Shown in pieces: positions 1 through 64,000 of a stretch of 64,000 nt of DNA (position 1 is the stretch's first letter; every line of letters begins with the position of its first letter). Both the position numbers and the translations under genes were made by a program. This stretch comes from a virus. Its lineage: Duplodnaviria; Heunggongvirae; Uroviricota; Caudoviricetes. Location: IMG/VR virus record IMGVR_UViG_3300042887_005798; one strand, given 5' to 3'. Below the pieces are notes generated by a model, which saw only the letters and a program-made list of their open reading frames with translations, made no database searches and was not told the origin of the DNA.

Positions 1-1066
1 AAGCAATACCAACAGGGAATCTTGGAATTAAATCATCAGTTCTATCGAAATACTTTACTGTGTACATTCTTCCCACATAATCTGATTTATTATCATAGAT
101 TTCTTTTCTTGATTCCATTGTGGTTTTAGGTGTTACTTTGAAAGTATCATCTGTTAAATCATTCTTGCAGATAACAACAGCATGTCCTTCCATTTTTCCT
201 TCTCCTTCAATGATGTCTACCACAAGAAATTCAGAATCTTGGAAAGTTTTTACTTTGAGCAAATCATTAGAGCGATAACCCCAAAGATACTTACTGTCTT
301 TTTCTCTAAGCATTAGACCTTCATAGCCATTGGCTAAAAACTTGCTTTGATAGTCTGTAATAGCGTTTTTGTCATAACCAATATCATACCCACACACAAT
401 CTGTAAGCTTTGCTTATTACTAATATTAATATCAGCTAGTAATTCTAGTCTTTCCTGAGTGGTGAGGTCTTCATTGCCATTAACAACAGGATAATCATAG
501 ATGTGATACTCTAACTTCAATGAATCAGATTGTGGTTTTTTAACCAATGAAATTAAAGATTGTAAAGACAATCCATGAATGTAGATTTCACCATCAAAGA
601 CATCATCTTTACCAAGTACATCTTTTAATTGCTCGGAAATGTGCTTAACATCGTAAATCTTGCCTTGCCTTGAATACAAGACAACAGAATCTCCTTCCCA
701 TCTGGCAATACATCGTACACCATCTAGCTTAGGCTGGCAAAAATAATGTGAATTATGTTTTTTAGCATCATATTTGCCAGCAAGCATCGGTAACAATAGA
801 GGCATTTGTGCCTCTTCTTTTGTGGCTGAGTATTTCCTCTCTATTTTGAATTTATGCAGAGATTTGGACTCAGCAATAGCTTGCTCAGATGCTGTGGTGA
901 AGTTTTTCTTTCCAATGTTTTTAGGAGTGCATGTTTTTCTGGAGGTTTGTAAAGCTCCATTAACTAAGCCATACTCAGTATAAATAGAATCTCCGTCTGC
1001 CCAAGTGCGCCATTGTCGAAGTTCTCCGTTTTTGCCTTTGTGATAAAGTGTATCAAATGATGTCAT
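1..1066 (-). CDS. ATP-dependent DNA ligase (T7/PBCV-1-like), partial: C-terminal part lies left of the window
   Basis: Manual minus-strand translation from the ATG at 1066: MTSFDTLYHKGKNGELRQW...KLDGVRC (motif I KxDG), EGLMLR (motif IV), LLKVK (motif V). It is absent from the ORF track because it has no stop inside the window. A GAGAGTATAAT element lies 4 nt upstream of the ATG. Confidence 0.75.
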   Translation of the reverse strand, partial: MTSFDTLYHKGKNGELRQWRTWADGDSIYTEYGLVNGALQTSRKTCTPKNIGKKNFTTASEQAIAESKSLHKFKIERKYSATKEEAQMPLLLPMLAGKYDAKKHNSHYFCQPKLDGVRCIARWEGDSVVLYSRQGKIYDVKHISEQLKDVLGKDDVFDGEIYIHGLSLQSLISLVKKPQSDSLKLEYHIYDYPVVNGNEDLTTQERLELLADINISNKQSLQIVCGYDIGYDKNAITDYQSKFLANGYEGLMLREKDSKYLWGYRSNDLLKVKTFQDSEFLVVDIIEGEGKMEGHAVVICKNDLTDDTFKVTPKTTMESRKEIYDNKSDYVGRMYTVKYFDRTDDLIPRFPVGIA

Positions 1067-1387
1067 GCCAATTATACTCTCAGATTGTTAAATCTGGAAA
1101 AAAACCCACCTCCGAAAAGATGGGCGATTTTGTTAGCTGAAGTTTATTTGGCTTCTGCTGATGTTTTGTTATAAAAAAATGAGACAATCTGTAAAGAGCA
1201 GAAAAGGTTTGAGTTGTCAATTTTAAGTTTTATATCAATGAATTTTGACAATGGTTATTTTTCGTGAATTTTGACCACATCTTCTTCTTTTTCAATAAAC
1301 TGTTTTTCAACATACAGTGTTTTTTTTTGCTCACAGAAATAAAATATTTCTGTCAGATTGCCTCTTTGCCCCCAAAGGAGCAAAATG

Positions 1388-1873
1388 TTACAGCTCTAAA
1401 ATTTCATCATCAATAACTACTTTTTTAACTGCATTGAATTCATCCAACTGATCTTGTAATTTTTCAGACTTTTTGATTAAAGTTTTTACAATTAAGTTTT
1501 GTTGAATTACATCAATTTGAACCCTTTTTATATCGTTAGATTGTGGTCTATAATAAGACGATAAATTTTGTGAACAATCTAAGTTTTCGTAAAAAGCAAT
1601 CAATCCTTTAGTCTCAGAAAGCTCAAAAATTAGATCAGCAGAATCCGAATTACTTTTATTGATTTCTGCTTTGACCTTTACAAGAAATGCTGTGAGTTTT
1701 TCCAATTCTTTAATTGAATTATTTACATCAACTTGTAGTTTAATTTCATCAACAGGAATATCTTTGTCAACCAAGTAAGCATTATGTGCAGAAATTTCTT
1801 TTTTGATAGATGTAATTTTACTTGTGATTCGATTTTTTATTTTTAAAGCCTTCGCTAGTGATATTATAGCCAT
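1388..1873 (-). CDS. hypothetical coiled-coil protein (161 aa)
   Basis: ORF track; K/E/I-rich helical composition; CGTATAAAT element 6 nt upstream of the ATG. Confidence 0.4.
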   Translation of the reverse strand: MAIISLAKALKIKNRITSKITSIKKEISAHNAYLVDKDIPVDEIKLQVDVNNSIKELEKLTAFLVKVKAEINKSNSDSADLIFELSETKGLIAFYENLDCSQNLSSYYRPQSNDIKRVQIDVIQQNLIVKTLIKKSEKLQDQLDEFNAVKKVVIDDEILEL

Positions 1874-61523: not shown

Positions 61524-61572
61524 TATTATATATACGGTAGGTTTTTGATTAAATTTCTTTTAAAATAAGATT

Positions 61573-64000
61573 GTGTTAGATATAAAAAATAAACTTTTGT
61601 TTGCAGCTACAAAATTAACCGAAGCTCAAAAACAATATTGGGCTACTGTAATCACAGAAGAAATTTTTAAAGAAATAATTGAACACAAAGTTACAATAAC
61701 ACAAAATTTTATTTATGATTTGATTAACAATATTGATTTAAGTATAATTCAAAATTTTTTAAGATTCGAAAGAAATAAAATAATAGAAGAAAAAGTCAAA
61801 GAAAAAATAAATAAAACACCTGGCATAGAAAATTACACTGATGACGAGATTAAAGATTTAGCTGGCACAATGTCAAAAAATGTTTTTAAATATAAATCTG
61901 ATCAATGGTGGAACAAATTTTTGATTAATGGTCAATTACCTGAAGAAATTTTAGCAAAATTATCAGTGAAATATAACAGAGAAGATCTTGAAAAAAAATT
62001 AGACATGAAGTCAGTGGAAAAATCTGAAGTTCTAAATAAATTAAATGAGATGCTGGGAAGAAGTTCAGAAACAAACATGTCTCGAATAAAAACAATTGAC
62101 ACTGAATTTGGAAAAGAAACTTTTAAAAGACAATTAAATGACTTGGGTTTTGATTTTTGGTCTGAAGAAGCACCTGAACAAATCTATCGCTCTATGGTAG
62201 ATGATAATACAAAAATACTCCAAAAACTAAATACAGCCTATAATAAATCAGATAGAAATGAAGAAAAATTTTATGCATATTTGTGTGATTTATATGGTGA
62301 AGATTTGAAACTTTTGAAAGAAAGAATTCAACCATTAAAAGAAAATAAATTATTTGTAGAAGAATTTCCAGAAAAATTTAAATTTACATATTCATCACTC
62401 AAAGAAAAAAAAGTTTTATCTACTTTAAAAGAAGTTTTTAATATAAGATATATTCCCTCAAAAATGAAAATTCCATCACCAGAAGAATCAATTTATGAAT
62501 ACTTTTTAATTGACTTCATTGTGGTTTGCGATGTGTTAAAAAGCGATTTGAATGAAATAAAACAAAATGAAATTCCTGAAATTGAAACGGAAATAATGCT
62601 TGTTGGTGAATATTTCGGATACACCTTAAGTGAAAGTGATCGAAGAAAATTTGATTCTTTTTTGCAACAAAGATCTGAAAACCCAAACATTGATGAATAT
62701 AAATCATTAAGTAAAAATGAATTTAAAGTTGCTCAATATGATTTTAAACACAAAGTCAAAGTAAATGCAGAAGATAATTTCGCAAAAACAATTAATTGTA
62801 ACATAATACATTTTACTGAGCCAAAAACCGACAATCCAGAAGAAATTATAAAAATGATTCAAAAGGAATTAACAAAAAAGAATATCCTTTTTACGGTAAA
62901 CAGAGCGCCACAACGTGATACCCCTTTGGGAAGATTAATCACTTGGTATAAATCATGTAATCAAACTGATGAACAAAAACAATTTTTATCCAATTTTTTA
63001 AACATCAATAATCCTAACAATGCTGAAATAAAAATAAAATCTAGTGCACTTTCATTCATACTTGCGACAGAAAAAGAACTGGATGCAGCAATTTCTAGAA
63101 AAATATTAGAAGAATCAATTAAAATAACTAAACCTTGGATGATTGACGATAGTGTAATTGATAAAATTTCTAAAACATTTCCAGCAATAAAAGATCAAAA
63201 AAATCAAATAAAATCTATGTTGAGAAATTTTTATTTTGATTTATCTCCAAAGGAAATGAAATCAAAATATCTTAATTTGATTAGAACAGTACTTGGAGAA
63301 TCAAATTATGCAATTTATAATCAAGAACTGCAAAGAATTATAATTGAACAAGAAAAAAACATAAGATTTAAACTCAATTCATTGAATGAAAATGAACAAG
63401 AACTAAGCTCTCTCAAAGAAGAAATAAACAAAATGAGACAAAGTACTCCTTCATTCAAAGTTAAATTTCAAAAGATTAACGAATTAAAAAATTGTATCAA
63501 GCAACTAAGATTATCAGATAATGATTTAGAAAAAATAATTCAGTGGTGCAATGATATCAAAAATAAAGATGATAAAGAATTAGAACTACTCACTTTTTGT
63601 GAAAACACAGTGGTTTCTTTTAACTTGAGTAAAAATTTAAAAACAGGTTCTTTTGATTTATTGGAGAATAAAACATTAATGTACAACATCACAAAAGCAA
63701 ATATTCTAAAAAACATCGTGCGACTTTCAAGAATTGCAGATATACTTGATGAAAATACTGATAGTGAATCAGCAGAAGCAACAAAATTAATTGATGATGA
63801 AATAGGAAACTTAGCAAATGACATGCCAGTTTCAGATACAATTATTGATTCAGAAGATACGGAAAATTTGTTTCCAAGAGTGCCCACTCCAACTACAGAT
63901 GATAATTTAAAAACACAAGGTGATATGCCTCAAGAACTTAGAGGAATAGAAGAACAAGCGATGTATGATGTAATTAATTCAAGTGAATTTTCAGATATTT
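61573..64000 (+). CDS. large K/E/N-rich hypothetical protein, partial (continues beyond the window)
   Basis: Open frame with no stop from 61564 to the window end; the first in-frame start candidate is GTG at 61573 (first ATG about 61869); absent from the track because it is incomplete. Confidence 0.4.
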   Translation, partial: MLDIKNKLLFAATKLTEAQKQYWATVITEEIFKEIIEHKVTITQNFIYDLINNIDLSIIQNFLRFERNKIIEEKVKEKINKTPGIENYTDDEIKDLAGTMSKNVFKYKSDQWWNKFLINGQLPEEILAKLSVKYNREDLEKKLDMKSVEKSEVLNKLNEMLGRSSETNMSRIKTIDTEFGKETFKRQLNDLGFDFWSEEAPEQIYRSMVDDNTKILQKLNTAYNKSDRNEEKFYAYLCDLYGEDLKLLKERIQPLKENKLFVEEFPEKFKFTYSSLKEKKVLSTLKEVFNIRYIPSKMKIPSPEESIYEYFLIDFIVVCDVLKSDLNEIKQNEIPEIETEIMLVGEYFGYTLSESDRRKFDSFLQQRSENPNIDEYKSLSKNEFKVAQYDFKHKVKVNAEDNFAKTINCNIIHFTEPKTDNPEEIIKMIQKELTKKNILFTVNRAPQRDTPLGRLITWYKSCNQTDEQKQFLSNFLNINNPNNAEIKIKSSALSFILATEKELDAAISRKILEESIKITKPWMIDDSVIDKISKTFPAIKDQKNQIKSMLRNFYFDLSPKEMKSKYLNLIRTVLGESNYAIYNQELQRIIIEQEKNIRFKLNSLNENEQELSSLKEEINKMRQSTPSFKVKFQKINELKNCIKQLRLSDNDLEKIIQWCNDIKNKDDKELELLTFCENTVVSFNLSKNLKTGSFDLLENKTLMYNITKANILKNIVRLSRIADILDENTDSESAEATKLIDDEIGNLANDMPVSDTIIDSEDTENLFPRVPTPTTDDNLKTQGDMPQELRGIEEQAMYDVINSSEFSDI

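Follow-up and report, generated by a model that had tools for sequence, protein, structure and literature searches.

A hyper-abundant nine-nucleotide word in a huge freshwater phage is a lineage-specific DNA-level signal

The 64,000-nt stretch of IMG/VR virus record IMGVR_UViG_3300042887_005798 analysed here (the window, meaning that whole stretch) has a guanine-plus-cytosine (GC) content of 32% and a uniformly negative GC skew, and is densely filled with small open reading frames (ORFs), mostly on the minus strand and mostly without a known family. Scattered through it is an over-represented nine-nucleotide word, M1 (AGATTGTGT; complement ACACAATCT), which is the subject of this report. The translation and chaperone genes of the window are dnaK (28438-30303, +), gatB (15005-16453, -), tyrS (13178-14374, -), the gene for initiation factor IF3 (4940-5452, -), a bona fide transfer-messenger RNA (tmRNA) gene (42102-42486, -; Rfam score, 108 bits), clpP and nusG; M1 occurs twice in dnaK and is absent from gatB and tyrS. 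The window also contains genes for two sigma-like factors, one of them of the extracytoplasmic function (ECF) type, genes for DNA and nucleotide metabolism (thyX, a PurA-like gene, T4 endonuclease V and a Y-family polymerase), a GH108 lysozyme gene, and mobile genes, namely three encoding TnpB and one encoding LAGLIDADG.

The first-pass annotation of this DNA had assumed a cellular replicon. The window is instead part of a huge freshwater phage, not of a bacterial chromosome: the same sequence was found on metagenomic contigs of 80-174 kb, relatives were found on freshwater scaffolds of 330-385 kb, an endolysin is encoded, and the flanks of the window carry T4 rIIB, a Mom-like gene, DNA ligase, NAMPT, Tad3 and DUF551. 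Metagenomic "huge phages" carry tmRNAs, tRNA synthetases and CRISPR systems (PMC7162821), and the window fits this description. A search of a phage collection by DNA and by DnaK protein returned no cultured relative. The closest cellular DnaK among the matches listed was from Armatimonadota (62% identical); this match and a Verrucomicrobia/Chthoniobacter-type prepilin may be taken as hints of the host, and only as hints.

An exact-word count of the window gave 58 copies of M1, 31 on the plus and 27 on the minus strand, where 0.85 +/- 0.94 were expected (maximum, 4) from 100 dinucleotide-preserving shuffles and 0.8-8.5 from Markov models of order 0-5. The estimate of the first-pass annotation (about 50 copies against roughly 1, on both strands) was therefore sound, and the k-mer enrichment check that it proposed confirmed an excess of about 70-fold. 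M1 was the most enriched 9-mer of the window, and the enriched 7- to 11-mers were its sub-words and extensions, whereas the 27 one-mismatch variants were present in only 0-9 copies apiece. The density of approximately 0.9 per kb is, as had been suggested, comparable to that of uptake signals. The positions first reported were good to about 11 nt; the exact starts of those copies are 2533, 2622/2634, 3085, 6276, 9324, 12687/12709, 19757, 20105, 20480, 21109, 26158, 27303, 30367, 33998, 35267, 42209, 51581, 60828 and 61568. All 58 copies are given below, the strand being that which reads AGATTGTGT.

394-402 (-): between or overlapping ORF ends
1986-1994 (+): intergenic, Shine-Dalgarno (SD) sequence and ATG 20 nt downstream
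2183-2191 (-): antisense within ORF 2102-2347 (+)
2533-2541 (-): overlapping the start of ORF 2344-2538 (-)
2622-2630 (+): first of a direct pair, 12-nt spacing
2634-2642 (+): second of that pair (partner 2622)
3085-3093 (-): intergenic, start at 3056 lies 28 nt downstream
4217-4225 (-): sense within ORF 4041-4943 (-)
4819-4827 (+): antisense within ORF 4041-4943 (-)
6276-6284 (-): abuts a promoter-like 19-mer
9324-9332 (+): intergenic
9480-9488 (-): sense within ORF 9446-9667 (-)
10242-10250 (+): antisense within TnpB/Cas12f-like ORF 9674-11080 (-)
11819-11827 (-): sense within ORF 11709-12584 (-)
12687-12695 (+): first of a direct pair, 22-nt spacing; pair kept in L244 despite a diverged spacer
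12709-12717 (+): second of that pair (partner 12687)
16479-16487 (-): intergenic, gatB start 25 nt downstream; intact in L086
17079-17087 (-): sense within ORF 16628-17341 (-); lost in L086
19757-19765 (+): composite ACACAATCTGAGCGTATAAAAT-N-ATG, read on the minus strand
20105-20113 (+): composite ACACAATCTGAGCGTATAAAAT-N-ATG, read on the minus strand
20480-20488 (+): composite ACACAATCTGAGCGTATAAAAT-N-ATG, read on the minus strand
21109-21117 (+): composite ACACAATCTGAGCGTATAAAAT-N-ATG, read on the minus strand
22689-22697 (-): SD and ATG 17 nt downstream; TnpB insertion junction 55 nt away, M1 not part of the junction
24974-24982 (-): sense within ORF 24899-25216 (-)
26158-26166 (+): gene junction; intact in L086
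27303-27311 (+): translated M-TQS-E
28102-28110 (-): codons 4-6 of ORF 27652-28119 (-)
28634-28642 (-): dnaK codons N-T-I-S; the same codons in L086, synonymous alternatives in L087
29929-29937 (-): dnaK codons T-Q-S
30367-30375 (+): past the terminator-like hairpin of dnaK; next ATG 21 nt downstream
33906-33914 (+): antisense within ORF 32518-33930 (-)
33998-34006 (+): overlapping the stop of ORF 33996-34970 (-)
34094-34102 (-): sense within ORF 33996-34970 (-)
35267-35275 (+): translated ...TQSQIWVNE*
37049-37057 (-): first of four in a 522-nt phosphatase-like ORF; intact in L086
37110-37118 (+): second of the four; compared with L086
37162-37170 (-): third of the four; compared with L086
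37249-37257 (-): fourth of the four; compared with L086
42209-42217 (-): within the tmRNA gene; intact in L086
43343-43351 (+): antisense within ECF-type sigma ORF 43033-43620 (-)
44342-44350 (-): sense within ORF 44220-44918 (-)
44694-44702 (+): antisense within ORF 44220-44918 (-)
47038-47046 (-): sense within Y-family polymerase ORF 46926-48149 (-)
47290-47298 (+): antisense within the same polymerase ORF
47861-47869 (+): antisense within the same polymerase ORF
49330-49338 (-): sense within ORF 48933-49865 (-)
50635-50643 (+): arm of the sole inverted M1 pair (32 nt), inside an ORF
50667-50675 (-): second arm of the inverted pair (partner 50635)
50971-50979 (+): antisense within thyX ORF 50709-51545 (-)
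51581-51589 (-): 3' end of the PurA-like ORF; thyX ATG 31 nt downstream
54810-54818 (+): sense within ORF 54359-54895 (+)
56932-56940 (+): antisense within ORF 56839-57408 (-)
57049-57057 (+): antisense within ORF 56839-57408 (-)
60828-60836 (-): contains the GTG start of a 941-aa ORF
61034-61042 (-): sense within dNMP-kinase-like ORF 60849-61523 (-)
61223-61231 (+): antisense within the same kinase-like ORF
61388-61396 (+): antisense within the same kinase-like ORF
61568-61576 (+): intergenic, start at 61523 lies 44 nt downstream

The two dnaK copies (28634 and 29929) and the two translated copies (MTQSE at 27303, ...TQSQIWVNE* at 35267), all reported in the first-pass annotation, were read off the sequence again. 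Alignment of the 58 copies with 45 nt per side revealed no conservation beyond about 2 nt (less than 0.45 bit per position). The flanking preferences were weak, with T at -2, C at -1 (28 of 58 copies) and G or T directly after the word, which gives the extended form T-C-AGATTGTGT-G/T. Because the flanks are not conserved, the copies represent neither a longer repeat nor a few duplicated promoters, and M1 as a miniature inverted-repeat transposable element (MITE) was rejected on the same ground. M1 also continues into both flanks of the window in the same phage, where 7.5 kb contain 4 copies and, at the opposite end, 8.6 kb contain 14. Our survey covered about 80 kb of this genome, which is at least 174 kb long, together with loci of 12-22 kb from eight relatives, which were retrieved by way of their DnaK proteins. 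Since the flanks are unconserved, the density is maintained beyond the window and the related phage loci contain 17-23 copies per 15-22 kb, the local artefact of a few duplicated promoters that had been named as the possible refutation does not apply.

To place the copies relative to genes, we used a rough map whose 88 ORFs, called approximately, account for 83% of the window. Thirty-nine copies lay inside ORFs and 19 outside, a 1.9-fold intergenic enrichment (P=0.003). The orientation was balanced: 19 sense to 20 antisense within ORFs, 10 to 9 between them and 29 to 29 overall, and all three reading frames were used. Distances to start codons ranged from -9 to more than 100 nt. Only 17 of the 58 copies (29%) were within 60 nt of a start codon, compared with 16% of all positions (1.8-fold; P=0.009), so that the earlier description of M1 as lying mostly within this distance is replaced by a modest excess. 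No second conserved element was found at a fixed spacing from M1 within 45 nt on either side of the 58 copies. Their spacing was Poisson-like (coefficient of variation, 1.07) and their strand order random; an even, coverage-type spacing and clustering were rejected accordingly. Neither an excess of copies directed at the closer gene end (24:15; P=0.2) nor a trend of sense copies, relative to antisense copies, toward the 3' part of genes (P=0.14) was significant. Close direct pairs were spaced by 11, 12, 12, 22, 22 and 44 nt, approximately whole helical turns, which weakly hints, from fewer than 10 pairs, that the copies of a pair lie on one face of the duplex. The window contains one inverted pair (50635/50667).

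Some copies are associated with promoter-like or leader sequences. Ten intergenic copies are in sense orientation 5-62 nt before start codons, several of them followed directly by GGAG. In four cases an TATAAAAT box lies 3 nt downstream of M1, and four copies share a 22-nt promoter-like context. The composite ACACAATCTGAGCGTATA(A/T)AA-N-ATG, which the first-pass annotation had described as frequent, is real (19757, 20105, 20480 and 21109), but "often" was too strong for four cases. A composite ACAATCTGA-NNG-TATAAT recurs in the related locus L245. In places M1 abuts or neighbours a promoter-like 19-mer, TTCCAGGTTTAACATTTTT, which is followed by a TATAAT-like box (TTCCAGGTTTAACATTTTT(-N-TATAAT)) and which served as a control; all six of its copies precede genes and are on the gene strand:

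6255-6273 (-): promoter-like 19-mer
7406-7424 (-): promoter-like 19-mer
9220-9238 (-): promoter-like 19-mer
28309-28327 (-): promoter-like 19-mer
33965-33983 (-): promoter-like 19-mer
43661-43679 (-): promoter-like 19-mer

This 19-mer probably represents the true promoter class of early or middle genes in this phage. A scan of IMG/VR with a promoter-like 17-mer for the rest of the genome returned unrelated contigs only. Approximately 7-8.5 kb to the left of window position 1 (L242, 18865-20334), we observed a tandem array of tiny ORFs in units mostly of 137-181 nt. Repeats with a 12-nt period (ATCAGGTG...) run through these ORFs, a perfectly conserved GATTAATACAGATTGTGTGGAG stands before every unit, and the array holds nine same-strand copies of M1, with GATTAATACAGATTGTGTGGAG-N7-start occurring nine times.

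Comparison with the relatives revealed that M1 sites are under purifying selection. In L086 (83% nucleotide identity), 16 of 18 aligned M1 sites were intact, compared with 33% of all 9-mers and with 47% of the 9-mers within +/-100 nt of the sites (P=3e-4 for this local control). The corresponding values were 12 of 15 against 34% in L244 (P=4e-4) and 3 of 4 against 8% in L245. Intragenic sites were kept as well as intergenic ones (12 of 14), and in the comparison with L086 antisense copies were conserved too. At the dnaK sites, the codons are identical in the window and L086 although nearby synonymous positions differ, while the dnaK of L087 encodes the same amino acids by other codons and has lost M1. 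This codon pattern and the conservation of the sites indicate that M1 is maintained at the DNA level. The mobile genes (three encoding TnpB and one LAGLIDADG; about 5 kb) contain 1 copy where 4.6 were expected (P=0.06), and no copy was found in 22 Armatimonadota loci (421 kb), a putative host phylum to which the nearest DnaK and the pilin type point. The absence from Armatimonadota and the deficit in mobile genes indicate that M1 belongs to the phage backbone. In 1.45 Mb of distant bacteria among the listed matches of the DnaK scan, which include these 421 kb, we counted four copies.

The relatives also differ in the word that they carry. L086 and L244 (DnaK 88-89% identical) contain M1 itself, in 23 copies per 21.9 kb and 17 copies per 15.4 kb, respectively. 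In L087 (DnaK 87%), M1 occurs just 3 times, whereas another word, M2 (GTTTTGTGT), occurs 17 times, against 0.42 expected. M2 lies on both strands, within and between genes, with 7 of the 17 copies in the 5% of the locus that is non-coding, and one M2 copy in dnaK arose through two amino-acid changes and one synonymous change. A perfect hairpin made of two M2 copies (GTTTTGTGTGGGAGgattttCCTCCCACACAAAAC) occupies an intergenic position at L087 8008-8041; it is terminator-like, as are pairs of the DNA uptake sequence (DUS) in Neisseria. In L245 (DnaK 84%), the left part of M1, CAGATTG, is kept (18 copies; 3.2 expected) and the right part is variable. L088 (DnaK 85%) has 6 copies of M1 against 0.41 expected, and orthologous sites are kept there at the neutral rate (5 of 19; 25% expected), which shows that M1 is decaying in this lineage. 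No dominant dispersed word was found in L089, L246 or L247 (DnaK 67-74% identical); ACAGGATT in L247, considered as a further dialect, proved to be a tandem repeat inside one gene. A scan of IMG/VR for M1 pairs was dominated by tandem repeats of unrelated viruses and yielded few likely relatives (L164, L111, L106 and L100). The similarity among these phages is mosaic: ORF 42565-43008 is 97% identical to its counterpart in L088 and 74% to that in L086, and the adjacent sigma factor is 43% identical to both. This pattern points to frequent recombination, which makes DnaK identity only a rough guide to relatedness. Across these lineages, M1 behaves like a pair of half-words, CAGATTG and TTGTGT, each of which can be retained in the absence of the other. 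M1 is thus a functional DNA-level signal that acts in either orientation, within and between genes, with lineage-specific variants, and whatever reads it differs among closely related phages.

We tentatively favour, as possible rather than probable, the reading that a bipartite DNA-binding protein, specific to the lineage and probably encoded by the phage, recognises M1 throughout the genome. Such a protein would bind double-stranded DNA as a monomer through two sub-sites, roughly CAGATTG and TTGTGT, and would occupy the phage chromosome about once per kilobase irrespective of gene direction; the outcome would be a genome-wide operator network or a silencer/organiser network. We infer a two-domain protein, encoded by the phage, whose binding would silence or organise the genome. 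A co-evolving reader with two sub-sites is proposed because the dialects each keep one half of the word, and a binding protein is favoured because of these half-word dialects, the promoter-adjacent subclass, the intergenic excess, the direct pairs spaced by 11-12, 22 and 44 nt, and the precedent of cluster A mycobacteriophages. The repressor of those phages (L5 gp71 type) reads more than 20 sites (PMC9283540; PMC6550527), and it binds an asymmetric 13-mer as a monomer with two DNA-binding domains, an arrangement said to enable new specificities (PMC9283540). Like M1, its sites (stoperators) are short asymmetric words found at tens of positions across the genome, at about 0.5 per kb, with a consensus that co-evolves with the repressor across relatives (PMC9283540; PMC6550527). 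Unlike M1, they are situated in promoters and short intergenic gaps and oriented with transcription, the reversed site being nonfunctional (PMC9283540). M1 is a 9-mer, 67% intragenic and without orientation bias (19:20 in ORFs; 10:9 between them), in a phage not known to be temperate; by analogy it may work like stoperators, but its orientation and location place it outside that class. P1 C1 operators and stoperators are the nearest phage features, and M1 follows neither their orientation nor their location rules.

Several observations weigh against this binding-protein reading. No candidate for the reader gene emerged among the scanned ORFs, most of the small ones being without a family. With just 43% identity between two M1-sharing phages, the ECF-type sigma factor is an unlikely reader, and it was rejected as such. 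Two thirds of the copies lie deep in genes with Poisson-like spacing, which would suit a machine tracking along DNA equally well, while the known dispersed phage operators are orientation-biased and mostly intergenic (PMC9283540), and M1 is neither. The hint of helical phasing comes from fewer than 10 pairs, and the DNA covered amounts to about 80 kb, from a genome that spans 174 kb or more. Among the options raised in the first-pass annotation, the binding sites of a genome-wide factor nevertheless remain the best reading; a sigma-factor promoter fails, and an uptake signal is very unlikely in a phage.

Statistically, M1 most resembles the DUS and uptake signal sequences (USS) of Neisseriaceae and Pasteurellaceae. 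These are likewise exact 9-12-mers at about one per kb, on both strands, coding and intergenic with a moderate intergenic excess, and they too show far rarer one-mismatch variants, lineage dialects (PMC3630211) and a deficit in recently acquired DNA. That M1 is itself the uptake sequence of a naturally competent organism is extremely unlikely, even though its density, sharpness, both-strand occurrence and dialects mimic DUS and USS and the window encodes prepilin-type, secretin N-domain and SLOG "DprA-like" proteins. DUS and USS belong to competent bacterial chromosomes, where they accumulate by uptake bias and recombination, whereas the M1 replicon is a phage, as rIIB, Mom, DUF551, Tad3 and the endolysin attest, and accumulation driven by uptake is impossible for a lytic phage genome. 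No competence machinery was found in it: the pilin-like protein is of the Verru_Chthon/H-X9-DG type and not ComP-like, for which reason a ComP-like pilin was also rejected as the reader, and the secretin and DprA matches are far under curated cut-offs, without the pore or the DprA core, and are not PilQ or DprA. Moreover, M1 forms a single inverted, terminator-like pair among 58 copies. More plausible, though on balance doubtful, is that M1 serves as a "self tag" of the kind represented by Chi or DUS, read by a DNA-processing machine and marking phage DNA for sparing, repair or packaging. The reader could be a RecBCD/AddAB-type helicase-nuclease, a terminase, a machine for recombination-dependent replication or a nuclease that breaks down host DNA, and sites in both orientations would be needed because the ends of a permuted genome can fall anywhere. 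This explains genic, randomly placed, orientation-free and sharp sites at least as well as the DNA-binding protein does: M1 shows no orientation bias (31:27 by strand, 29:29 by gene), Poisson-like spacing, all reading frames, a "digital" sharpness, genic sites held by synonymous codons and a deficit in mobile genes. The dialects of DUS provide a parallel (PMC3630211). Chi itself, the "self" signal against exonucleolytic degradation, is like M1 sharp, asymmetric, over-represented and independent of genes. A density of 0.9 per kb is also that of USS and DUS, and phage P1 is reported to be enriched in Chi sites of its host. Known Chi sequences, however, are 5-8 nt long, enriched only a few-fold, skewed by strand with replication or packaging, and defined by a host enzyme, while M1 is in 70-fold excess and unskewed over 64 kb (31:27, random strand runs, a uniformly negative GC skew), with no host counterpart found in the Armatimonadota loci. 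Its absence from the 421 kb of that candidate phylum argues that it is not the Chi of such a host (the host being unproven). The 80 kb seen contain no RecB- or AddA-like gene, and we know of no phage-encoded reader of this kind. The rapid switch of dialects and the neutral decay in close relatives would be unexpected of a housekeeping signal, and the intergenic and promoter-adjacent excess is not predicted, although relaxed coding constraint could cause it. Another hyper-abundant exact word at about one per kb, in coding and non-coding DNA and of obscure function, is highly iterated palindrome 1 (HIP1; GCGATCGC), but it is palindromic, chromosomal and confined to cyanobacteria.

The remaining explanations account for smaller parts of the data. 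A host factor, such as a global regulator or a nucleoid protein, that the phage recruits or titrates would explain why dialects differ among close phages (as different host species), why some relatives have no such word and why promoter-near sites occur in either orientation. We consider it unlikely, given that the DNA of the candidate host phylum is free of M1, that host regulators rarely need some 300 exact sites, and that, to our knowledge, M1 is unlike the consensus of the DnaA box, IHF, CRP, Fis and parS. It is quite unlikely that M1 is an RNA-level or translation-initiation element, in which AGAUUGUGU(GGAG) in the 5' leader would aid ribosome loading or mRNA processing. The ten sense copies before start codons with their GGAG, the nine GATTAATACAGATTGTGTGGAG-N7-start units of the small-ORF array and the phage-encoded IF3 are in line with it, and the start-associated sequences (SAS) of cluster K mycobacteriophages (PMC3203893) are similarly short words before many starts, partly over the ribosome-binding site. 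SAS, however, are always in sense orientation and found at gene starts only, a pattern that M1 follows in about 10 of its 58 copies and in the nine-copy array outside the window; half of the copies are antisense to the local gene and conserved as well, others lie in the middle of dnaK and of other genes, and the subclass amounts to about 15-20% at most. A target of a phage modification or nicking enzyme (the Mom-like protein, a methyltransferase or a nickase) would account for the restriction-enzyme-like specificity, and a Mom-like gene, a methyltransferase and S-adenosylhomocysteine (AdoHcy) hydrolase do flank the window. The Mom protein of Mu acts in the context S-A-S-N-Y, which fits the CAGAT of extended M1. 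We regard this as very unlikely, since nine contiguous specified bases exceed the reach of known modification enzymes, such targets are not normally in 70-fold excess and the Mom context is very degenerate. A promoter element for a sigma factor or an RNA polymerase of the phage is a highly improbable reading despite the 1.8-fold excess near starts, the two sigma-like genes and nusG, and the four copies adjoining TATAAAAT. The first-pass suggestion of a sigma factor or a helix-turn-helix (HTH) regulator at promoters is contradicted by the 29:29 orientation (10:9 between genes, 19:20 within ORFs), by the two thirds of copies inside genes, by start distances of -9 to more than 100 nt with no partner at fixed spacing, and by the divergence of the sigma factor between two M1-sharing phages (43% identity); the control TTCCAGGTTTAACATTTTT, by comparison, is on the gene strand in 6 of 6 cases. 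That M1 is an artefact, arising from a mobile element or MITE, from TnpB/IS targeting or from the duplication of a few promoters, has a practically negligible probability: four copies do share the 22-nt promoter-like context and nine outside the window stand in a tandem array, but at least 50 others have unrelated flanks.

Strain comparison revealed two insertion polymorphisms, a TnpB element (21307-22633) inserted at TTTACAAT|TGGCTC and a free-standing LAGLIDADG gene (37459-38651) between the phosphatase-like gene and clpP. M1 as a target or end of TnpB/IS605 elements was rejected on the basis of the former insertion site, the different flanks of a second element and the lack of M1 at junctions or ends. 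At 35013-36930, the number and order of paralogous small ORFs (about 100-130 aa) vary by strain, which points to recombination among the paralogues. M1 as a signal of recombination or mosaic boundaries was likewise rejected; 4 of about 17 breakpoints of indels and replacements between strains lay 19-55 nt from M1, which was not significant, and none coincided with it.

Other features of the locus bear on the biology of the phage. The Mom-like gene and T4 rIIB lie at L242 15502-17546 on one flank, and a glycosyltransferase cluster, an FkbM-type methyltransferase and AdoHcy hydrolase at L240 81-5686 on the other; given these genes, the phage DNA may be modified. The short PurA-like gene (51564-52523, -; 319 aa), which adjoins thyX, matched cellular PurA (E=1e-55) better than the phage PurZ of 2-aminoadenine genomes (E=1e-16 to 5e-6), so that a Z-genome is not indicated. 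Four genes resemble pilus or competence genes (55386-56417, -; 56839-57408, -; 11709-12584, -; 57496-58011, +). Their types are a Verru_Chthon/H-X9-DG prepilin, an STN (secretin N0) protein, a secretin N0+N1 protein without the pore and a SLOG-fold protein ("DprA-like" in PHROGs), and the pilin, secretin-N and SLOG matches were all below curated family cut-offs. These genes hint at a host from the Planctomycetes-Verrucomicrobia-Chlamydiae (PVC) group or Armatimonadota, or at interference with host pili. A CRISPR-like array (11117-11513) consists of seven copies of a repeat of about 28 nt, CCATCATTCCCCACGTGCGTGGGGCGAT, with a palindromic core and irregular spacers of 24-41 nt. It is located directly upstream, on the minus strand, of a 468-aa TnpB/Cas12f1-like protein (9674-11080, -), and the two may constitute a compact, phage-borne type V CRISPR-Cas locus. 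Other strains have the identical array, and its spacers had no match in the loci that we fetched.

Our literature searches for the word and for over-represented phage oligomers returned primers and unrelated papers, and none described an orientation-free hyper-abundant word in huge phages. Sharp words at about one per kb are known in bacterial chromosomes, as uptake sequences, Chi and HIP1, and in small temperate phages as sparser, strictly oriented repressor sites. A speculative and rather improbable extension is that a clade of huge phages runs its own "self-recognition", in which a hyper-abundant word (M1, M2 or others) and a phage-encoded reader serve repair, sparing or packaging. If so, viruses would possess an equivalent of Chi or DUS, whose fast-changing dialects would also bar exchange between co-infecting relatives, a change of dialect starting a new phage lineage. 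In practice, M1 offers a simple means of binning and classifying such phages from metagenomic data; segments acquired horizontally could be recognised by its absence, and lineages still able to exchange DNA could be traced by it. If a reader protein exists, it would define a new system for recognising DNA genome-wide, in the phage group that is understood least.

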